Shown: positions 11,215-51,302 of the stretch, piece after piece | Layout: the number at the start of each line of letters is the position of its first letter | Position numbering within the stretch: the stretch's first letter is position 1 | From: Prochlorococcus sp. scB241_528N17 | Lineage (GTDB): Bacteria; Cyanobacteriota; Cyanobacteriia; PCC-6307; Cyanobiaceae | Assembly: GCA_000634735.1 (NCBI GenBank) | Contig: JFLG01000084.1 | Location: 4,946-68,945 of the forward strand | Direction of reading: 5' to 3' | Length of the DNA: 64,000 nucleotides | Notes under the pieces: model-generated | Told to the model about the DNA's origin: nothing | Database searches by the model: none | Seen by the model: the letters and a program-made list of their open reading frames with translations, nothing else | Made by a program: the position numbers and the translations under genes

Positions 11215-12228
11215 TTATTCTACAAATTTTCTAAAAAAGACAATTTTTACATTCTTTTTTTTAGAATAATCATATAAAACAAACAAACTAAAAAGTGAAA
11301 TTGATATTACTAAATTTGCAGAGAAAATACTCGCATTTCCAGCGGTTACAAGAATTTCAGAATTTATTTTAGGCAATATATGTATAAATAAAAAATATAG
11401 ACTTGTTAGAAAACTAATCATTGAAGATAAAAGAAAGAAAGATCCTAAACTTAATTTATAAATATATTTATAAAGAATATCTTTTAAGAAATTGATACCC
11501 CAAAATTTCAAAAGTGGGTAAATCATACTTGAAGATTTCATTGAACTTCTCCATTCTTTGCCATATATTGTATGCATCGGAAACTGATGCAAATTAGCTC
11601 CTAGATTGCTACATCTTTTTATAATACTGCATTCGAAAAGATATCTTGACTCGATATTAGTTTTAAACTTTTTAGATATTAAATACTTTAGAGTGATTTG
11701 ATTCATGGAAAAAAATCCATTAGAAATGTCAGTTAAACCTTTATAAACTAAACACATTCTGGAAAGTGGCTCTAGCAGGAAAGAACCTAATCTTCTGTCA
11801 AAAGGTATATATTTATTATTAATAGGGAAATGGAATCTAGTCCCCTTAACAAGAGTTAATTCATTTAATGGCAGATTTAATAAATAAGGTACCAATTCAA
11901 GAAGGTATTCTGGTGGATGTTGCCCATCTGAATCCATCTTTATAAAAAATTGGTTTTCTGAATTTAATGCCTCTTTAAAACCTATTAAAGAAGAAGCTCC
12001 AACACCCAGGTTATTTTTATTATGAATTACATTAAATATCTCTGACTTTGGTATTTCCTTATATGAGTAATCTGGGCAAAAGTCATCAACAATATATACT
12101 GAAATTGAACAAATATTAGATAATTCAGAAGCAATTTTCATTAATTGTTTACACAAAGTACCTACTTTATTTTTTGCCCTATAACAGGGAATAATGACAG
12201 CTACTTTTGATTTCAATTTATGTTGCAT
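11215..12228 (-). CDS. GT2 polyprenyl-phosphate glycosyltransferase (GtrB/ArnC/DPM1-like)
   Basis: 337 aa. N-terminal GT-A domain (VAVIIPCYRA, YIVDDFCPD, KMDSDGQH) is followed by two C-terminal TM helices, the GtrB/ArnC architecture. Confidence 0.65.
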   Translation of the reverse strand: MQHKLKSKVAVIIPCYRAKNKVGTLCKQLMKIASELSNICSISVYIVDDFCPDYSYKEIPKSEIFNVIHNKNNLGVGASSLIGFKEALNSENQFFIKMDSDGQHPPEYLLELVPYLLNLPLNELTLVKGTRFHFPINNKYIPFDRRLGSFLLEPLSRMCLVYKGLTDISNGFFSMNQITLKYLISKKFKTNIESRYLFECSIIKRCSNLGANLHQFPMHTIYGKEWRSSMKSSSMIYPLLKFWGINFLKDILYKYIYKLSLGSFFLLSSMISFLTSLYFLFIHILPKINSEILVTAGNASIFSANLVISISLFSLFVLYDYSKKKNVKIVFFRKFVE

Positions 12229-12305: not shown

Positions 12306-13979
12306 ATGATAGATAGTTATCAAAAAATATCTTTAATCAAAATAATAATCAAAATATTTAAGAATTTATCTTCTAGAAGAAAAAGACAATTGGGAGCGTT
12401 AAGTTTTCTATTCCTAATTAGTAGTTTTAGCGAAGTGTTAACACTATCTTCAATTCAGCCATTCTTACAAGCTATGGGTGAAACAAATAATCAGGAAAGC
12501 TTAATATCTCTTCTATTTATTTTTATAATTCTTTTAATTATTTCAGCTTCTTTAAGGTTATTAACTATTTACTTGAATAATTATTTTGCAGCTAGCCTTG
12601 GGAATGAACTTGGTAGCTCTGCATATTCGAATTCTTTATCACAACCTTATTCATATCACTTAAAAACTAATACGAGCAATATAATTTCTACCATAGTAAC
12701 TAAGACGAGTTCCTTAACGGATACTATTAGATATCTAATGTTATTTATAAGCTCTTTATTTATATTTTTATCTATTTTTTTTAGTCTTTTAAAGATTAAT
12801 TTCTCAATTACTTTTATAATTTCAATTTCTTTTATTATTTTTTACGGAGTCTTAATCTTATTTATAAATAAGCGTATAAATAAAATTTCAAGAGTCAAAT
12901 CGGAGCTTGTAATTCAACAAACCAAATCATTACAGGAGGGATTGGGATTCATTAGAGACATAATATTAGATAAATGCCAAAAAACATTTGAGAATGAATT
13001 TAAATGGAAAGATAGAAAACTAAGATTAATTGATGCTAAAAGTAATTTCTTAGAGGCATCTCCAAAATACCTTTTAGAAGTAATAGGAATTACAGTCTTA
13101 ATAATATCTTCTTTGGTTTATTCAAGAAATAATCCAATAGAAGTTATCCCTATATTAGGAACATTTGCCTTTGGAATACAACGTCTTCTACCTCCGCTAC
13201 AACAAATTTATGGATCCTACGTTTTCATAGAGACTCATAAATACTCTTCCTTGAGCGTACTTAATATGCTTGAAAATGAAAGAGAGAGAGAGCTAAACAA
13301 GAGAAAACAATTTAAAGAAGATTTCAACAATGAAATTAATTTTAAAAGCGTTTATTTTCGATATGATAAAAATTCTAATTATGTCTTGAAAGATTTTGAC
13401 TTAAATATAAAAAAGGGTGAAAAGGTAGGATTAATTGGTAAATCAGGTGCAGGTAAAAGCACTATTTTGGATTTAATAATGGGACTAACAAAGCCTGAAA
13501 AAGGTGAGATTTTAGTTGATGGTAAAAAAATGCATGAAAAAAGTTTCAAAATTGAAGGTTGGTACTCCCAAATATCTCATGTTCCTCAGAATGTCTTTCT
13601 CTCAGATCAATCTTTAGCAGAGAATATTGCATTTGGAATTGATAAGAAGAATATAGATATGAAAAAATTAAAAGAAGCCGTAAAGATATCTCAATTAACT
13701 AAGCTTGTAGAAAACTCTGAAAAAGGCTTTTTTGCAAAAGTAGGAGAAAGAGGCATACAAATAAGCGGAGGTCAAAGACAAAGAATTGGGATTGCAAGAG
13801 CAATATATAAAGGTGGGAAAATTTTAATTCTAGATGAGGCAACTAGTGCACTAGATACTGATACTGAAGATTCTATAATGGAATTTATTAATAAATTAAA
13901 CAAAGAATATACCCTCATTATTGTTTCTCACAGAAGTAATACTTTGAAGTTTTGCGATAGAAACATATTTCTTAAATAA
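12306..13979 (+). CDS. Fused TMD-NBD ABC exporter (MsbA/PglK-like)
   Basis: 557 aa. N-terminal six-helix-type TMD, Walker A GKSGAGKST, signature ISGGQRQRIGIARA and Walker B ILILDEATSALD. Confidence 0.85.
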   Translation: MIDSYQKISLIKIIIKIFKNLSSRRKRQLGALSFLFLISSFSEVLTLSSIQPFLQAMGETNNQESLISLLFIFIILLIISASLRLLTIYLNNYFAASLGNELGSSAYSNSLSQPYSYHLKTNTSNIISTIVTKTSSLTDTIRYLMLFISSLFIFLSIFFSLLKINFSITFIISISFIIFYGVLILFINKRINKISRVKSELVIQQTKSLQEGLGFIRDIILDKCQKTFENEFKWKDRKLRLIDAKSNFLEASPKYLLEVIGITVLIISSLVYSRNNPIEVIPILGTFAFGIQRLLPPLQQIYGSYVFIETHKYSSLSVLNMLENERERELNKRKQFKEDFNNEINFKSVYFRYDKNSNYVLKDFDLNIKKGEKVGLIGKSGAGKSTILDLIMGLTKPEKGEILVDGKKMHEKSFKIEGWYSQISHVPQNVFLSDQSLAENIAFGIDKKNIDMKKLKEAVKISQLTKLVENSEKGFFAKVGERGIQISGGQRQRIGIARAIYKGGKILILDEATSALDTDTEDSIMEFINKLNKEYTLIIVSHRSNTLKFCDRNIFLK

Positions 13980-14054: not shown

Positions 14055-15590
14055 TTAAAAATAAAAACGTAAAAAATAATAGCCAAATATATTTGTTAAA
14101 TAAACAATTTGATTAATAAAAGCTATGAAAATTATCTGTTTAATAAGACCTTCTTCTTTAAAAAAAACATAAAAATTTTTTTTCAAGAGCTTGTGGTTGT
14201 GATTCTTATCTCTTCTATAAATCAATAAATCTGAGCTTAAGTTAAAAAAAAGTGGGGAGAGAATTATTAATGGTAAAAAATATCTACCTTGAATATCACT
14301 CAAAATCAAATCTCTGCCCCAATAAATATAAAAAGCATAGAATATTCCGATATAAGTTATTAGAAAACATCCACTCAAAAAAAGAAACATAAAATTCTTA
14401 AATTTAAATTTGTAGAAATTTAATTTTGAAAATCTTTTTATTGCAAACAATATTTGGAATAGATAGTTTCTTTTTAAGTAAATACCAATAATAATTAAAA
14501 ATAATATATATAAATAGAAAAAAATATAAAATTTATGAGGTATTAATAGCCTCGCAATAGGGCCATTTCCAAAAACTCCATAAATCTCTCTTAACCAACT
14601 ATCAAATTTATTTAAATGGGTCAAAAATAATGATTTGATGAATAAATAAAATTCATCAAAGTTCTTCAAATGCTTCGTACTTTCCAATCCTCTTCTATTG
14701 ATATACATTTCTTTTACTTTTAGAGAAGAAAAATTAAGCCAATTAATTGTATTTATCAATCCAGAAATATAAAATCCTACAAAGACTATTTTTGAAAATT
14801 TATTTTTTAGTTTGTTGAAAAAAAACAATCCTAATGCAATCGTAATAGGAATATAAACGGATTTAGATGTAATTATCGAAAGACATATTCCCGCTATAGA
14901 GGCTAATAAAATATTTTTTTGGTAATTATGATTTTTAAATTTTAAAAAACAAAGAGAAAAGAGAGCTGAGCAAGCAAATATTAATGAATCACCCGAAAGA
15001 GAACTTGAGATAAAAGTAACAGTAGGTAATGAATATATTAAAAGAATTAAAGAGTAGGTAAGTTTATCAAAATATTTATTTTTAAGATTAATTATTTCTC
15101 TTAATAAGAAAAAGTTTATTATCAACCAAATTATTGCATTTGAAAATCTTAGTGCATAGTAATTAAATAACAAATTTTGATTTATTTTACTAAAAAATTT
15201 TAATAGATTTGATTGTAAAAAATAGTTATTCCCAGAATAGGCAGTAATTAGTTGGGCACCTTTTAAATTTTCTGAATAGTTATCAAAGAAATAATCTTTA
15301 AGTTTTAATTTACCGATATCAAAGTCCCATGGATTTTTTTGACATTTTAAATTTGCAATACAATCATTTGCTAATCTATGATCTGAAAACCCTATCCCTA
15401 AATTTATAGTATTCTCAGGGATATAAAGCTCTTTTTTAGATATAGATTCGTCATAAATCCTTTGAAAATGATACATCTCATCTGGGGCATCAAAAATAGT
15501 AATAAGAATTGAGCCAAGTAGAGTTGAAATGCAAATTATTATTATGAAATATTTTTCTACATAATAAAAAAAATTTTTTATTGTTTTCAT
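14055..15590 (-). CDS. Polytopic membrane protein, GT-C-like (DUF2142-like)
   Basis: 511 aa with many predicted TM helices. The first loop carries FDAPDEMYHF, resembling the acidic first-loop motif of GT-C/DUF2142 proteins. Confidence 0.45.
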   Translation of the reverse strand: MKTIKNFFYYVEKYFIIIICISTLLGSILITIFDAPDEMYHFQRIYDESISKKELYIPENTINLGIGFSDHRLANDCIANLKCQKNPWDFDIGKLKLKDYFFDNYSENLKGAQLITAYSGNNYFLQSNLLKFFSKINQNLLFNYYALRFSNAIIWLIINFFLLREIINLKNKYFDKLTYSLILLIYSLPTVTFISSSLSGDSLIFACSALFSLCFLKFKNHNYQKNILLASIAGICLSIITSKSVYIPITIALGLFFFNKLKNKFSKIVFVGFYISGLINTINWLNFSSLKVKEMYINRRGLESTKHLKNFDEFYLFIKSLFLTHLNKFDSWLREIYGVFGNGPIARLLIPHKFYIFFYLYILFLIIIGIYLKRNYLFQILFAIKRFSKLNFYKFKFKNFMFLFLSGCFLITYIGIFYAFYIYWGRDLILSDIQGRYFLPLIILSPLFFNLSSDLLIYRRDKNHNHKLLKKNFYVFFKEEGLIKQIIFIAFINQIVYLTNIFGYYFLRFYF

Positions 15591-15602
15591 AAAGCAAATG
15601 AT

Positions 15603-16289
15603 TTAATCACATTGAAAACTAAAAAAAAGTTTTTGATTATAGTCAAATCTAATATTATTAGAGACGACTTTCAGCATATCACTATCTTTAAATGAATCGG
15701 TAATGGCAAAAATAAACTTATAACCTTTGTTAAATTCGTTTTTAATTCTGAATGATTTAGAATTAAATTTATAAATATGCGAATCATATTTATCTATATC
15801 TATAGCTATTAAAGAAAAACTATATTTATTTATAATACTGCTAAGAAATCGTTTATAGTTATTAGATACTACGATTATATTAAATCCCATATTTTGTAAT
15901 TTTTTTAATTTATAAATTAAACTATGGTTCAAATTACTATTATTATTTAAAATCATAAATTTATTAATTAGATCCATCCCAGATATTGATAAGATTACAT
16001 TTGATACACAATATTTTAAATAATTCTTTGGGGAAGATATTAAGAATGTTTTTATTATTCTTAAGTTAATATTCTTAAGAAAAAAATATAGTAATTTATA
16101 TATAAATTTAACTTTATTATTTTTTATTATATAAATTACTAAATTTAAAAAGCTATCATTTTTAATCAAAGTTTTATCATAATCAACAAAAACACACCCT
16201 TTTTTACTAGTCATTTCATTTGATTCATTAATCAAATAATCAAATATTATATTTATATCCCCTGGTGTATAACTTTTATTAAACATCAA
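15603..16289 (-). CDS. HAD-superfamily phosphatase
   Basis: 228 aa. Motif I is VFVDYDKTL (DxDxT), motif II IIVVSNN, and motif IV-like ITDSFKDSDM. Confidence 0.6.
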   Translation of the reverse strand: MMFNKSYTPGDINIIFDYLINESNEMTSKKGCVFVDYDKTLIKNDSFLNLVIYIIKNNKVKFIYKLLYFFLKNINLRIIKTFLISSPKNYLKYCVSNVILSISGMDLINKFMILNNNSNLNHSLIYKLKKLQNMGFNIIVVSNNYKRFLSSIINKYSFSLIAIDIDKYDSHIYKFNSKSFRIKNEFNKGYKFIFAITDSFKDSDMLKVVSNNIRFDYNQKLFFSFQCD

Positions 16290-16339
16290 AGATATATATC
16301 CTTATTTTTATTATAATTCACAGTAATTATTATACAATT

Positions 16340-17224
16340 TTGACCTCTAATAATTCATTTATAAATTGTTGGATTTGTGGTTGTAATAAAATATATAAGA
16401 TAAAAAATACAGATATAAATTTTGATTCTCTAGATACCGAAGACTTTCAAATTACAAATTCACAATATGGTAAAACTCTTGATTTATATAAATGTAAAAA
16501 TTGTAATTTTATACAAGCCGCTAAAGCAAGTAACCTCACAAAATATTATGAAAAGATGGTTGATGAAGAATATGAAGAGACAAGAAAAGAAAGATTTTTA
16601 CAGGAAGATTATATTATTAAAAAATTTATCTACTACAATAAATCTGGTAAAAAACTTTTAGATGTTGGATGTGGTTCAGGTATTCTTCTAGAAGCAAGTA
16701 AAAAATATAAATTCCAATCAATTGGGGTTGAACCTTCAAAATGGCTATACAAAAAAGCTATTAAACGAGGCTTGGATGTAAGGTGTGGAGTTTTAGAAGA
16801 TATTCCAAATTCACAAAAATTTGATGTTATCACTTTGGCAGACGTTATTGAGCATGTTACAAATCCTATGGATATATTAGAGCAGATTAAATCAAGATTA
16901 AAACCAGAAGGCATAGGAGTAATAGTTACACCAAATGTTGATTCTTTGTTAGCAAAAATACTTAGATGGAAATGGTGGCATTATCGAGTAGCACATGTAG
17001 GTTACTTTTCAAAAAAAACAATTAAACTTGCACTTGAAGAGTCTGGTTTTCAGCTATTAAGTATAAAAAATACAAGATGGTTCTTTAGTTTAGATTATCT
17101 TGTAAAAAGAATATCAACCTACCTACCCAAATTCCTAAGGATTAGCAAGGCACCATTTATTGGTAAGAAATTAATAAAATTAAATTTGGGAGACTCGATA
17201 ATAGTAATATTTAAAAAAAGTTGA
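16340..17224 (+). CDS. Class I SAM-dependent methyltransferase with N-terminal zinc-ribbon
   Basis: 294 aa with a non-ATG (TTG) start in the ORF track. It has CWICGC...CKNCNF cysteine pairs and the SAM motif I LLDVGCGSGILLE. Confidence 0.75.
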   Translation: MTSNNSFINCWICGCNKIYKIKNTDINFDSLDTEDFQITNSQYGKTLDLYKCKNCNFIQAAKASNLTKYYEKMVDEEYEETRKERFLQEDYIIKKFIYYNKSGKKLLDVGCGSGILLEASKKYKFQSIGVEPSKWLYKKAIKRGLDVRCGVLEDIPNSQKFDVITLADVIEHVTNPMDILEQIKSRLKPEGIGVIVTPNVDSLLAKILRWKWWHYRVAHVGYFSKKTIKLALEESGFQLLSIKNTRWFFSLDYLVKRISTYLPKFLRISKAPFIGKKLIKLNLGDSIIVIFKKS

Positions 17225-17225
17225 A

Positions 17226-18203
17226 TTAAACAGGTAAAAATCCTTTTGAAAAAAATTCTCTCAATATTGGAATTTCAATTTTAAATAGAATAGGACTAAA
17301 GATAATAAAAGCACCAATTGATAATGAGATTAACTTATCGGAAAATACGAAATTAGGGTTGTTTATGATTTTATCCTTATTCGAAAAAGATATTCTTAAA
17401 TATTGTGCCATTGCCAAAATAATAAATGGAATTAAAAGACAAAATTCTATTTTATAAATTGAAAAAAATATAGTAATAGAAGAAATAGCTCCTAAACAAA
17501 GAATAAATGAAAGAAGAATTAATTTATTTTCTGTATAGCTAATCAAGGATGGACGATATTTCTTCATTTCTTTTTTTGTACCCTGCCATGTAAGTATTTC
17601 GTTTATTCGCTTACAATTCATTAAAAAATATCCACTTAACCAAACACCCAAAATCAAGGTTAATGGAGGGTATGCATAAGAGACGGCTAACCAACCTGCC
17701 ATAAATCTAAGAGGATTATTAATAGATTCAGAAAACACATCCAAAAATACCTTATCTTTAAACCTGAAAGGTAATTGATTATATAAAATGCCATTTATCA
17801 ATATACAAAATATAATAATTTTCAGTATGAGAGTTAGCTCATAAAGAAATAAAATGCAAATTACTATTGTTAATAAACAAAAATATGTCGAAAAAACATC
17901 AACAAAGTTCAGTTTACCTGATGGAATAGGCCTTTTCTTTTTTATAGGATGAAAGGAATCAGATCTACGATCGCACCATTCATTTAAAACATAATTTGCT
18001 GAACTGGCGAAAACTATACTAAAGATAACTAATACAAAATTTATATAATTTATTTCATTATTAGGAGCAAAACAAAAACCTAAAAAGGTTCCAAAGAAGA
18101 AAAAAATTTGTTTTATTAAATAATCAGGCCTGCAAATTTTATATATATAGATAAGCTTTTTTTTATTATTATTCATACTTGGTAATAATTTTGATAATAT
18201 CAT
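17226..18203 (-). CDS. UbiA-family prenyl(-phosphate) transferase, decaprenyl-phosphate phosphoribosyltransferase-like
   Basis: 325 aa polytopic protein. NEWCDRRSD fits N-D/E-x-x-D-x-x-x-D and is followed by KKKRPIPSG, as in UbiA-superfamily active sites. Confidence 0.65.
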   Translation of the reverse strand: MILSKLLPSMNNNKKKLIYIYKICRPDYLIKQIFFFFGTFLGFCFAPNNEINYINFVLVIFSIVFASSANYVLNEWCDRRSDSFHPIKKKRPIPSGKLNFVDVFSTYFCLLTIVICILFLYELTLILKIIIFCILINGILYNQLPFRFKDKVFLDVFSESINNPLRFMAGWLAVSYAYPPLTLILGVWLSGYFLMNCKRINEILTWQGTKKEMKKYRPSLISYTENKLILLSFILCLGAISSITIFFSIYKIEFCLLIPFIILAMAQYLRISFSNKDKIINNPNFVFSDKLISLSIGAFIIFSPILFKIEIPILREFFSKGFLPV

Positions 18204-18260
18204 AAATTTATAAATATGATGAATTACTATAATTTTTAAAATTAATTTTATAGTAGTTTT

Positions 18261-19352
18261 TTATATTTTTTTTAAAATTTGAAAATTTTTGGGTAAAAAT
18301 TGAACGAATATTAAAAAAGGTAATAAAGGATATAGATACCGCATATGGGCTGTCCCATAAAGAGTTGGCAAAAGTATTGAAAAAGGAAATAATAAAGCAA
18401 GTTTTCTTATATCGAATTCTTTAAAAATATAAATTAAAAGTCTTATTAAAAGAAAAGAATGGAAAATTAAAAAAGAAAATGTAGTTAACAAATTAATTAA
18501 ATTATTCGCCGCATATTCAGAAGGTAAGTTCAAGCAATATATTGATATTGCTTCTCTAGCTCCTAAATTTAGAATCATATGTACAATTGGTGTAAAGATT
18601 AAACTTAAAATCTTACTTATATTTGGACTCAAAATTTTCTGAAGAAATTTATCTATATTTTCGAGAGAGTAGCAACCAAAATTTTGAGATATATATTCAA
18701 AACCATAAAAAATTTGAGAAGAGGTAATAAATATTGTTATTAGAAATAAAGATAATATTCCTAGCAACTTAAATCTTGTGAAATCTCTTTTAAATACAAA
18801 AATCAAGAAAAATTGAATCCATAATAATGGGATAAGTGCATTCCTAAAAATAGTAGAAAATACATTTAATATAATTGAAAAATTAAAAGTACTTTTATTG
18901 GAATAGAAAATCCATAGGGCATAATAAGAAACTCCTAAAGTAGCAAAAATATTTGAATCCAATTTTAATGAATATAAAGCTAAATAAGGATGTAAAGATA
19001 ATATGAAAATAAAAAGAATTGAATTTTTCTTAGAAAGAATTTTGATACATAAAAATATAAAAGGCGTAATTATTAAGAAGGAAATTATGAAAGAAATAAT
19101 AATGAAATTTAAAGATAATAAATTTTCAGAATTATATCCAATACTCCTTATGAATAAAGTGTAAAAAAAATTTGGTGAAAAAATATTTATATTATTTTCA
19201 TTATAAAATTTCAAATCAGTAAAAGAAAAAATTCTATTATCGTAAATTGAAAGAAATTTATAAACAACAAAAGTGCTTAATGACCTAAGAAACAGAAAAA
19301 GACCTGATAATAAAAAAAATTCTCTTAAGTTTTTTTTAGTCCGAATTAACAT
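18261..19352 (-). CDS. Polytopic membrane protein, possible GT-C glycosyltransferase
   Basis: 363 aa, almost entirely hydrophobic helices. No soluble-domain motif is visible. It lies between the UbiA-like and GtrA-like genes. Confidence 0.35.
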   Translation of the reverse strand: MLIRTKKNLREFFLLSGLFLFLRSLSTFVVYKFLSIYDNRIFSFTDLKFYNENNINIFSPNFFYTLFIRSIGYNSENLLSLNFIIISFIISFLIITPFIFLCIKILSKKNSILFIFILSLHPYLALYSLKLDSNIFATLGVSYYALWIFYSNKSTFNFSIILNVFSTIFRNALIPLLWIQFFLIFVFKRDFTRFKLLGILSLFLITIFITSSQIFYGFEYISQNFGCYSLENIDKFLQKILSPNISKILSLIFTPIVHMILNLGAREAISIYCLNLPSEYAANNLINLLTTFSFLIFHSFLLIRLLIYIFKEFDIRKLALLFPFSILLPTLYGTAHMRYLYPLLPFLIFVQFLPKNFQILKKI

Positions 19353-19392
19353 AAAGTAATTAAACCTTTTTTATAATAATGCTAAGAGTAAA

Positions 19393-19779
19393 TTATTTTT
19401 TAAAAACGAAATATTTTTGAGCTAAAAATGAATAAATTACCAAAATTGGGATAACTATAATCGCGGCAAAATTTTCAGAATAACCTATCATTATTGATAA
19501 AATATATATTAAAGTTGTATTAAGTATCCATGAAAATATTGCAATTAATAAATATTTAAAAAAATTTTTTAAACTTTTTGTATTTTTTTTAAAAACAAAT
19601 TTTCCATAAAGATAGAATCCGATAAGAAGATTAATAATTTGACTCAAAAGGGTGCATAACCATATTGGCAAATATAATAAACTTATCTGCAGATTCAAAT
19701 TTGTAAAAAAAAGATTTATTAAACCAAAAAATAAAAAATTTAAGAAAGATTTTGATTTTAAGATTCTTGAATTATTCAT
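19393..19779 (-). CDS. GtrA-family small membrane protein
   Basis: 128 aa with four TM helices. N-terminal FLFFGLINLFF and C-terminal QKYFVFKK match the GtrA family pattern. Confidence 0.7.
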   Translation of the reverse strand: MNNSRILKSKSFLNFLFFGLINLFFTNLNLQISLLYLPIWLCTLLSQIINLLIGFYLYGKFVFKKNTKSLKNFFKYLLIAIFSWILNTTLIYILSIMIGYSENFAAIIVIPILVIYSFLAQKYFVFKK

Positions 19780-20039: not shown

Positions 20040-20693
20040 CTAATATTTGCAAATGATAGGTTTTAATATATCAGAATTATTATTACTATAAGCTACAGAA
20101 ATATACCAATCCTCATAATTGATAAAAAAAGATTTGAGATTATAACCATCTTTCTTATTCTCTAATATATTAGTATCAAAGTTAAAATTCCATTTTGAAA
20201 GATCATTAAAAATACTACCTTTTTGCCACTTGATCGCAGCTTCTTTTCTTACCCAAAGTTTTAAAACCTCAGAATTAACTTTATTGTAATTTAGATCTTT
20301 AAATGATTTTTTTTCATTATTCGAATAAAATTCATCTAGTATTTTTTTTGCTTCAAAAATCCTATCCGATCTTCCTATATCTACCCCTATATTCTGTAAT
20401 GACCAACCTATTAGTAAAACATCTCTGCAATGACTAAAACTGACATTACCCATCTCAGCAGGTAATTCTGGAGGCGATCCAGGAGGAGATTTTAATGGGA
20501 TTTTTAAAGCAGGTATTTCTAAAATATGAGATAAAGCTTCACGTACGTATCCTCTTGAGTGTTCATATTGTATAGCTCTATTAGAAGAGAGTTCTTTTTT
20601 CCATTTAATTTCCTCAGAACTTATAGGCTTTAGGCAAGCATTAAATGGAACAACCCAAACTGCAATTATTTTTTTATTAAGATATAAATTCAA
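20040..20693 (-). CDS. 4'-phosphopantetheinyl transferase (Sfp/HetI type)
   Basis: 217 aa. Motifs VSFSHCRDVLLIGWS, IGVDIG and WVRKEAAIKWQKG correspond to PPTase motifs (SxSHs, GxDxE-like, WxxKEAxxK). Confidence 0.7.
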   Translation of the reverse strand: MNLYLNKKIIAVWVVPFNACLKPISSEEIKWKKELSSNRAIQYEHSRGYVREALSHILEIPALKIPLKSPPGSPPELPAEMGNVSFSHCRDVLLIGWSLQNIGVDIGRSDRIFEAKKILDEFYSNNEKKSFKDLNYNKVNSEVLKLWVRKEAAIKWQKGSIFNDLSKWNFNFDTNILENKKDGYNLKSFFINYEDWYISVAYSNNNSDILKPIICKY

Positions 20694-50868: not shown

Positions 50869-51229
50869 TTATACTAAATGGATATCTAATTTAATAAAAC
50901 AAAGTAAACCTGGAAATTTATTCTAAAAAAAATTTTTAAGCCTAAGTTAAATATTTACACAGATTTCCTCTCTATTTTACTATTGATCTAAGAATTTTTA
51001 TACAAAGATTAATATAGAAGATATCTATAAAAACATAAATTTATGAAACTATGTCATTTTTTCAAAAGTTTTTGAAAAGGTTATATTTTTTAGTTCTGCA
51101 AAAAAAAGATTCTTAATAAGTGTATTTTAGGGTGCATAATTGCTTTAAAAAGCTTGGAAAAGTACTTACAAAAGTTATGTTATTACTAAACACCGTCTGA
51201 AAACTATTGGTATGACTGAAAAAATTAAG

Positions 51230-51302
51230 TGGAGCCATGCGGATTTGAACCGCAGACCCCCTGCATGCCATGCAGGTGCTCTACCAACTGAGCTATGGCC
51301 CC
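51230..51302 (-). tRNA. tRNA-Ala (anticodon GGC)
   Basis: The reverse complement GGGGCCATAGCTCAGTTGGTAGAGCACCTGCATGGCATGCAGGGGGTCTGCGGTTCAAATCCGCATGGCTCCA folds as a cloverleaf. It has the G3:U70 alanine identity pair, anticodon loop AT-GGC-AT and T-loop TTCAAAT. CCA is not encoded. Confidence 0.93.

Follow-up and report, generated by a model that had tools for sequence, protein, structure and literature searches.

In a 64,000-nucleotide stretch of the Prochlorococcus sp. scB241_528N17 genome (contig JFLG01000084.1; hereafter the window), a surface-polysaccharide gene island appears to encode two periplasmic side-chain glycosylation systems, a reading to which we assign a probability of roughly 0.65. 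Genes for a UbiA-superfamily membrane enzyme, a HAD phosphatase, a DUF2142 polytopic membrane protein and a methyltransferase (MT) read as a separate cassette inserted beside a second system, composed of a family 2 glycosyltransferase (GT2), a GtrA-family small membrane protein and a polytopic protein called ORF5 (open reading frame, ORF). The cassette probably makes a lipid-linked pentose derived from phosphoribosyl pyrophosphate (PRPP), most likely ribose; outside the cell, this sugar would be added to a surface polysaccharide. What the analysis shows is to which families the proteins belong, which residues they conserve and how their genes are linked in different genomes; from this we infer every chemical step, the identity of sugar and acceptor and the sharing of GtrA. 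Surface-glycan islands of Prochlorococcus are hypervariable and are believed to control grazing and the adsorption of phages; to our knowledge, almost none of their chemistry is known. The analysis provides testable chemistry for a rare cassette, namely a PRPP-derived and possibly methylated pentofuranose side chain, in addition to a second, GtrAB-type side chain. The pathway type is already published; new here are its probable occurrence in a cyanobacterium, for which we found no earlier report, a UbiA clade with an 'NE' motif, the combination of a stand-alone HAD phosphatase with GtrA and DUF2142, and the MT partner.

In the cassette, the UbiA enzyme would move ribose-5-phosphate from PRPP to polyprenyl phosphate and the HAD phosphatase would take off the 5-phosphate to give polyprenyl-P-ribofuranose. 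The cytoplasmic Zn-ribbon MT may modify the lipid-linked sugar, GtrA would flip it across the membrane and the DUF2142 protein, acting as a GT-C glycosyltransferase, would transfer the pentofuranose to the surface glycan. In the neighbouring system, GT2 would make a polyprenyl-P-hexose or -N-acetylhexosamine, GtrA would flip this product and ORF5 would transfer the sugar. Three-component pentofuranose side-chain systems have been shown biochemically in Citrobacter youngae O1/O2 (Kelly et al., PNAS 2024; PMC11127046). There, ORF15, a fusion of a HAD domain with a polyprenyl-phosphate 5-phosphoribosyltransferase (PPPRS), makes polyprenyl-P-ribofuranose from PRPP, the MATE protein ORF14 is the predicted flippase, and ORF12, a GT-C enzyme with the active-site set D31/E34/Y35/H106/R349 and founder of family GT136, adds the sugar to the O antigen in the periplasm (PMC11127046). 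Xylofuranose arises from this sugar through the SDR epimerase ORF13, in the absence of which the side chain is ribose (PMC11127046).

We predict that the UbiA protein is a PPPRS resembling the mycobacterial decaprenyl-phosphate enzyme (DPPRS) and belonging to a distinct clade with an invariant 'NE' motif. Its top NCBIfam matches, all well under the respective cut-offs, are three DPPRS models and NF006088, the HAD-UbiA fusion family, and its closest match in the PDB is Rv3806c (8j8j). A family profile built from 60 homologues scored 102.8 bits against Rv3806c (E 1.6e-28), compared with 48 bits against AfUbiA, 36 against DGGGPS, 32 against ChlG and 18 against UbiA (4-hydroxybenzoate octaprenyltransferase). 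The DPPRS and HAD-UbiA fusion models were matched by all 60 family members, with the best E-values. The comparison with Rv3806c drawn by a first-pass annotation of this DNA was borne out, since NCBIfam, PDB sequence and profile comparisons all place DPPRS nearest. Mapped by alignment, nine of the twelve PRPP contacts listed from the Rv3806c structure (PMC10994848) are kept in the window protein: R25, K31, Y71, N74, D78, K88, R91, Y141 and K149, which correspond to R22, K28, Y70, N73, D77, K87, R90, Y138 and K143 of Rv3806c. Seven of these are invariant in the 60-sequence alignment, and R25 and K31 are found in 58/60 (two sequences are gapped). The pyrophosphate contacts and two of the three 5-phosphate contacts are conserved in the family. 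Among the residues of loop II (N-D-x-x-D-x-x-x-D) and loop IV (R-x-x-E) that mark such synthases, N74, D78, D82, R199 and E202 are present, with E75 in place of D. The motif K198-R199-x-x-E202 (KRINE) occupies the site of the second Asp-rich motif of prenyltransferases; its counterparts are KRYAE in Rv3806c and R366/E369 in C. youngae ORF15 (PMC11127046). The stretch aligned with the Asp-rich motif of DGGGPS contains no Asp. An identity as quinone, chlorophyll or tocopherol prenyltransferase was considered and rejected: the second Asp-rich motif, by which canonical prenyltransferases (UbiA, MenA, ChlG, HPT, DGGGPS) bind the second Mg2+ and the prenyl diphosphate, is missing, profile scores are 18-48 as against 103 bits, and neither motifs nor profile scores group the protein with these enzymes.

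In a neighbour-joining tree calculated without support values, the Prochlorococcus UbiA sequences stand together, apart from the rest of the clade, and the 'NE'-type clade as a whole lies on a long branch away from Rv3806c. We know of no characterised member of this clade. The 90%-identity cluster of the window protein holds sequences of Prochlorococcus sp. MIT 1314 and of a P. marinus CUG1439 metagenome-assembled genome, labelled just 'UbiA family prenyltransferase'. A scan of viral contigs with the UbiA profile found zero relatives.

The HAD protein is predicted to be the polyprenyl-P-ribose-5-phosphate 5-phosphatase. Its catalytic motifs are intact: DxDxT (D36, D38, T40) and D202 of motif IV are invariant in its small family. 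By hhalign, this family is related to a HAD-IB cluster (99% probability, E 2.3e-18), whose mostly proteobacterial members adjoin related UbiA genes and in several loci also GtrA genes. The HAD protein may act on the UbiA product because UbiA-linked HAD-IB homologues match the HAD domain of HAD-UbiA fusions (seven of eight match the N-terminal HAD domain of NF006088), an indirect argument of the gene-fusion type. In two further loci, that of Prochlorococcus sp. AH-736-A21 (L002) and L003, the HAD gene adjoins the UbiA gene or lies one gene off. A HAD enzyme had been suggested to replace the mycobacterial PAP2 phosphatase Rv3807c; this is plausible, with the HAD domain fused to the synthase in C. 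youngae ORF15 as precedent (PMC11127046).

The DUF2142 gene starts 12 nt after the HAD stop codon, and its product is predicted to be a GT-C glycosyltransferase that uses the lipid-linked pentofuranose. Three residues of the loop behind the first transmembrane (TM) segment, D37, E38 and H41, do not vary in the homologue alignment, and this loop is the usual catalytic position of GT-C enzymes. Pfam places DUF2142 in its GT-C clan. The top Foldseek matches of an AlphaFold2 model with a pLDDT of 52 are GT-C proteins (Pmt1/2 with a probability of 0.99, STT3, ALG9, ALG12 and ArnT; E 0.05-0.8), which is no more than suggestive of a GT-C fold. Neither DUF2142, as a single sequence or as a profile, nor ORF5 gave a meaningful match to PDB sequences, and hhalign found no relation between DUF2142 and the ORF5 family. 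In the literature, DUF2142 proteins are treated as polytopic extracytoplasmic transferases or polymerases (PMC12599335, PMC9746298). Those of Lactococcus and Streptococcus (WpsI/WpsJ-like, in cell-wall polysaccharide loci) resemble the window protein in Pfam family, polytopic nature and predicted extracytoplasmic action on lipid-linked glycans, but they are proposed oligosaccharide-unit polymerases or transferases without a link to UbiA or HAD (PMC12599335, PMC9746298).

Linkage of these genes extends well beyond the window. In AH-736-A21, a UbiA gene whose product is 54% identical is accompanied by the MT gene on the opposite strand, HAD and DUF2142 genes and then GtrA; the flanking genes are unrelated to those of the window and ORF5 is absent. 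In L003, a 545-aa protein is followed by HAD and then UbiA. A metagenome contig from ENA (L001, 29.7 kb) has the gene order of the window at 86-87% protein identity. Its GtrA, ORF5, HAD, DUF2142 and rml genes are split in fragments, which look like long-read assembly frameshifts and not like pseudogenes. In a scan of one genome per species, at least 590 species had a UbiA relative, including Lachnospiraceae, Proteobacteria, Verrucomicrobia, Acidobacteria, Melainabacteria and others, with no more than 39% identity to the window protein among the matches listed. Of the best 80 loci, we surveyed the neighbourhoods of 70. In 46 of these, the two nearest genes on either side of UbiA include one for a protein with 380 aa or more and five or more TM segments, and the 54 large polytopic neighbours comprise 13 PMT_2, four GT87, one PMT, one DUF2142 and one Glyco_transf_22 protein, many others being without a family. 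One of the two HAD clusters is found within two genes of UbiA at 31/70 loci, in agreement with the Pfam counts. Consecutive genes of a metagenomic genome of 3.8 Mb encode Bac_transf, UbiA, HAD and a PMT_2/GT87 protein. The co-occurrence expected by the first-pass annotation thus holds for UbiA, HAD and a GT-C-type protein, both in this survey and in AH-736-A21, and a large sister clade of DPPRS emerges that is routinely found beside HAD phosphatases and GT-C-type proteins in many phyla. The cassette is rare in Prochlorococcus, since 15 protein clusters were found at 39% identity or more and no close relative was among the best 80 species-representative loci. In five Lachnospiraceae loci (L024, L039, L056, L083, L085), 'NE'-type UbiA and HAD genes directly follow the housekeeping genes rsgA and rpe (for ribulose-phosphate 3-epimerase), and the two nearest genes on either side encode no large membrane protein; here the UbiA-HAD pair stands in another conserved setting.

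ORF5 is predicted to be a small GT-C-like transferase of a GtrA/GtrB-type system. The top PDB matches of its AlphaFold2 model (pLDDT 91.9, pTM 0.91) in Foldseek are GT-C proteins, i.e. ALG12 (probability 0.95), ALG9 (0.94), PglB, STT3, ALG3, PIG-M and AftB, at weak scores (E 0.2-5, TM 0.34-0.44), and D46 is invariant after the first TM segment. For a 100%-identical ORF5 protein, no contig was on record. Distant homologues (34-35% identity) are encoded in gtrA-GT2-ORF5 or GT2-ORF5 arrays without UbiA. In L089 and L090, the gene directly upstream of the ORF5 homologue encodes a GT2 that shares 41% identity with the window GT2 across 325 aligned residues. Among NCBIfam models, the window GT2 matches PpgS best (E 1.1e-8), with ArnC and DPMS also matched, and its sole PDB match is the Dol-P-Man synthase 5mlz (E 1.4e-8); we predict a polyprenyl-phosphate glycosyl synthase (GtrB/DPMS/PpgS-like) that partners ORF5. 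Because the arrays of ORF5 homologues hold GT2 and no UbiA, we read GT2, GtrA and ORF5 as a GtrA/GtrB-type system, and ORF5 probably does not use the UbiA-made donor. GtrA, which scores 40.9 bits against PF04138 (cut-off 26.1), is the predicted flippase for polyprenyl-P-sugars and is probably common to both side-chain systems; its homologues occur with the UbiA cassette in AH-736-A21, with ORF5 in L087 and L088, and also in gtrA-GT2-ORF5 triads. The likening of this 128-aa protein to Rv3789, likewise of the GtrA family, was sound.

The first-pass annotation had instead let GtrA, ORF5, UbiA, HAD and DUF2142 serve one pentose donor; the two GT-C-like proteins would then transfer it to two different positions or acceptors. 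The five genes are indeed co-directional and closely spaced, their order recurs in the close relative L001, and systems with several GT-Cs are described in Xanthomonas and Bacillus (PMC11127046). Against a single pathway, the ORF5 family occurs without UbiA in L087, L088, L089, L090 and the P0139 contig, with GT2 in every case and with GtrA in most, the matching GT2 is present in the window, outside the range given by the first-pass annotation, and the AH-736-A21 cassette is without ORF5. L088 has ORF5, GtrA and a GT2/DUF2304 pair. In L087, also from Prochlorococcus, the same island position is occupied by a 4'-phosphopantetheinyl transferase (PPTase), GtrA, ORF5, an ABC transporter, GT2 and Polysacc_synt_2, without UbiA, HAD and DUF2142. 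We consider a single pathway unlikely. The proposal that both polytopic proteins are GT-C users of the lipid donor is kept for DUF2142, a predicted GT-C enzyme, and probably fails for the GT-C-like ORF5, whose triads are without UbiA; as to the fold, the best Foldseek matches are GT-C for both proteins, with weak scores.

The layout of GT2, GtrA and ORF5 is that of the GtrA/GtrB/Gtr(type) systems for O-antigen glucosylation in Shigella and Salmonella and of mycobacterial PpgS/Rv3632/Rv3779: a GT2 synthase with a membrane tail is linked to GtrA and a polytopic GT-C-like protein, a fold that is weakly supported for ORF5. It differs from GtrA/GtrB/Gtr(type) in that ORF5 belongs to no Pfam family and is small (363 aa), and in that some 6 kb separate GT2 from gtrA-ORF5. 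Alongside ORF5-type triads stand genes for a PIG-L deacetylase, an EpsG-like protein and GT2 with DUF2304 (L088, 5827-7623; L089, 9319-11305; P0139 contig). Such triads presumably resemble the mycobacterial PpgS/Rv3632 polyprenyl-P-GalNAc route, and by this analogy the ORF5 family may transfer an amino sugar.

Several observations weigh against the two-system reading. The UbiA protein stays far below the NCBIfam equivalog cut-offs for Rv3806c (NF008976-8), the best score being 81.7 bits against NF008977 with a cut-off of 234. The Pfam and NCBIfam matches of the HAD protein are sub-threshold (PF12710, TIGR01488), an exhaustive HMMER search with it gave nine matches with no fusion proteins among them, and its link to the fused HAD domain runs via UbiA-linked HAD-IB genes and is hence indirect. 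The DUF2142 model is of low confidence because the homologue search yielded six sequences only, and the Foldseek E-values for DUF2142 and ORF5 are all above 0.01. ORFs and TM segments were called crudely in the neighbourhood survey, and only six small UbiA neighbours in the 70 surveyed loci matched GtrA. Finally, three Rv3806c residues are changed, the ribose contact Q135 to G, the 5-phosphate contact Y157 to N, and K208 to P, and an invariant Glu (E75 in the window) replaces D74, the second position of NDxxD.

Because of these four changes, the donor of the 'NE'-type UbiA could differ from the PRPP used by Rv3806c. The enzyme would then be a phosphoglycosyl- or other group transferase with a non-PRPP donor or an acceptor other than polyprenyl phosphate, and a different product, to which the long branch from Rv3806c lends some colour. 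The conserved pyrophosphate contacts and the two conserved 5-phosphate contacts speak for PRPP, a phosphatase as frequent partner is in keeping with a donor from which an extra phosphate stays behind, PRPP being the obvious one, and the frequent GT-C neighbours fit a polyprenyl-P-sugar product. We give another donor or acceptor little credence and retain a PRPP-dependent synthase as part of the two-system reading.

By its linkage across genomes, the MT is a conserved fourth member of the cassette and not an incidental insert. Orthologues (219-337 bits) adjoin related UbiA genes in AH-736-A21 and in nine other loci (L005, L007, L009, L019, L038, L048, L053, L059, L060), where they score 219-304 bits. 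These loci span six phyla, with Legionella, Pseudomaricurvus, Melainabacteria, Verrucomicrobiaceae, Acidobacteria, Bacteroidales, Hoeflea and Mesorhizobium among the hosts, and in several of them the gene lies between or directly beside those for UbiA, HAD and the large membrane protein. The protein has an N-terminal CxxC...CxxC segment, and closest to it in the PDB are 3cc8 and the sugar C-methyltransferase TcaB9. Its substrate is possibly the lipid-linked sugar; having no membrane segment, the MT would in that case work before flipping, the stage at which known epimerases act. For O-methyl pentofuranoses, the literature search returned RNA papers only. Taken further, the 'NE' clade and the MT could form a four-component pathway to a so far undescribed donor, a pentofuranosyl-phosphopolyprenol that is methylated or departs from the standard form in another way, and in Prochlorococcus a rare island-borne surface modification. 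We put this forward tentatively and with considerable doubt; if true, such a modification could change phage susceptibility. That UbiA and MT instead belong to a glycan-unrelated small-molecule pathway (to a prenylated, methylated quinone-like or aromatic compound) lodged in the island is highly improbable: UbiG is the best NCBIfam match of the MT (62 bits, below the cut-off of 103) and some databases label UbiA relatives 4-hydroxybenzoate polyprenyltransferase, but the UbiA protein is without the second Asp-rich motif needed for prenyl-diphosphate binding, the UbiA, ChlG and DGGGPS profile scores are far under that of DPPRS, HAD, GT-C-type and GtrA genes make up the conserved neighbourhood, and the structural relatives of the MT include TcaB9.

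Among known pathways, the C. youngae system is like the cassette in pathway logic (a UbiA-type PRPP transferase with a HAD 5-phosphatase, a flippase and a GT-C enzyme, the last a candidate only in the cassette) and in its surface-polysaccharide locus. By homology and motifs, the cassette has a synthase of the kind described by Kelly et al., a linked phosphatase and a member of a flippase family. The C. youngae HAD is fused to the synthase, whereas it is encoded separately in Prochlorococcus; the flippase is MATE, whereas GtrA is the candidate here; and its GT-C is of GT136, whereas the candidate here is a DUF2142 protein. The C. youngae synthase has NDxxD, whereas the Prochlorococcus UbiA has NExxD and falls in a separate clade, and the cassette further differs by the extra conserved MT and its cyanobacterial host. 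Kelly et al. call the strategy widespread, with cyanobacteria unmentioned (PMC11127046). A search of the literature found no report of the pathway in Prochlorococcus or other cyanobacteria. The first-pass annotation knew of no such system in Prochlorococcus or other marine picocyanobacteria, which agrees with the literature found, but the pathway type is described (PMC11127046); the reach of the 2024 three-component model is widened by our analysis, and a conserved MT partner is flagged.

The mycobacterial decaprenyl-P-arabinose route shares with the cassette an Rv3806c-type enzyme, the nearest characterised and solved UbiA relative, a GtrA-family protein (Rv3789) and, as predicted for the cassette, extracytoplasmic GT-Cs (Emb/Aft) that use the lipid donor. 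It has, however, DprE1/DprE2, the PAP2 phosphatase Rv3807c and arabinan polymerases, which the cassette is without, and the expected product of the cassette is side-chain ribose as opposed to arabinan. No DprE1/DprE2-like gene (FAD_binding_4-type) and no PAP2 phosphatase match was found among the 20 ORFs scanned between 4.6 and 30.8 kb of the window (GtrA, with 128 aa, and long ORFs of 217 aa or more, the lower bound of the scan for all but GtrA being 150 aa), and a DprE1/DprE2-like gene is absent from the AH-736-A21 cassette as well. The first-pass annotation had noted the absence of DprE1/DprE2 from the module and had concluded on an unepimerised donor; because this absence extends over 4.6-30.8 kb, an unepimerised ribofuranose donor remains the default reading. 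Its appeal to the Corynebacterineae route is right in pathway logic, but the cassette is not a member of that route, having neither DprE1/DprE2 nor PAP2 and a DPPRS score below the cut-off. Pilin arabinosylation in Pseudomonas aeruginosa PA7 (PsPA7_6246 onward, TfpW; via PMC11127046) is a Gram-negative parallel, with a DPPRS homologue, a GT-C and extracytoplasmic pentofuranose. It has DprE1/DprE2 homologues and a pilin target, whereas the cassette has no epimerase and is surrounded by polysaccharide genes.

The features of the locus are listed in Table 1. The six ORFs from DUF2142 to GtrA are evidently real genes, because they are long for a G+C content of 21-25% and all have conserved homologues. 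Each was confirmed in place, and the strings quoted from them earlier (NEWCDRRSD, KKKRPIPSG, VFVDYDKTL, DSFKDSD, DAPDEMYHF) were all found in the translations. Five minus-strand genes with a nested plus-strand MT gene had been described; the MT gene is not nested: it occupies the space from HAD to UbiA on the opposite strand, overlaps neither of them and is 50 nt away from the HAD start. For the HAD gene, the ATG at 16286 is the probable start codon, because P0182, a 97% identical relative, has 227 aa. The stop codons of the convergent UbiA and MT genes are 1 nt apart in the window (17224/17226) and 5 nt apart in AH-736-A21 (8426/8432). Because no terminator-like hairpin was detected at this convergence, the two transcripts may overlap or interfere. 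The promoter and terminator scan gave fewer promoter-like sites than in shuffled sequence and zero terminators, and is uninformative in AT-rich DNA.

Table 1. Features of the cassette, the neighbouring glycosylation system and their surroundings (window positions)
Feature	Position	Strand	Details
GT2 with hydrophobic C-terminal tail	11215-12228	-	337 aa; PF00535, E 2.4e-11
Fused ABC transporter (permease and ATPase)	12306-13979	+	PglK/MsbA/HepA-like; PglK 265 bits, below cut-off
DUF2142 polytopic membrane protein	14055-15590	-	511 aa; PF09913, E 6.6e-23
HAD-IB-like phosphatase (predicted)	15603-16289	-	228 aa; PF12710, E 0.008; TIGR01488, E 3e-4
Zn-ribbon and class I S-adenosylmethionine-dependent MT	16340-17224	+	294 aa; Methyltransf_23, E 1.6e-28
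UbiA-superfamily membrane enzyme	17226-18203	-	325 aa; PF01040, E 2.7e-22
ORF5, polytopic protein	18261-19352	-	363 aa; no Pfam/NCBIfam match
GtrA-family small membrane protein	19393-19779	-	128 aa; PF04138, E 2.8e-10
PPTase	20040-20693	-	flanks GtrA
tRNA-Ala	51229-51302		near G+C transition

The cassette region at 14-20 kb has the lowest G+C of the window (0.21-0.25). Over most of 1-54 kb the value is 0.21-0.30, and past 54 kb it is 0.34-0.36, a pattern that fits a hypervariable surface-glycan island with a boundary near 51-54 kb. Around the two systems, the island contains genes for a WecA-like GT4, GT1s, a PglF-like dehydratase, rml genes and GDP-mannose pathway genes. The ABC transporter sits between GT2 and the UbiA cassette, a position kept in L087 and L001, and could be the flippase or exporter of the main lipid-linked glycan. 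In the syntenic L087, the PPTase gene is preceded by a KAS III-like gene and an SDR gene (464-2873), a neighbourhood suggestive of a module for acyl-carrier-dependent modification within this island.

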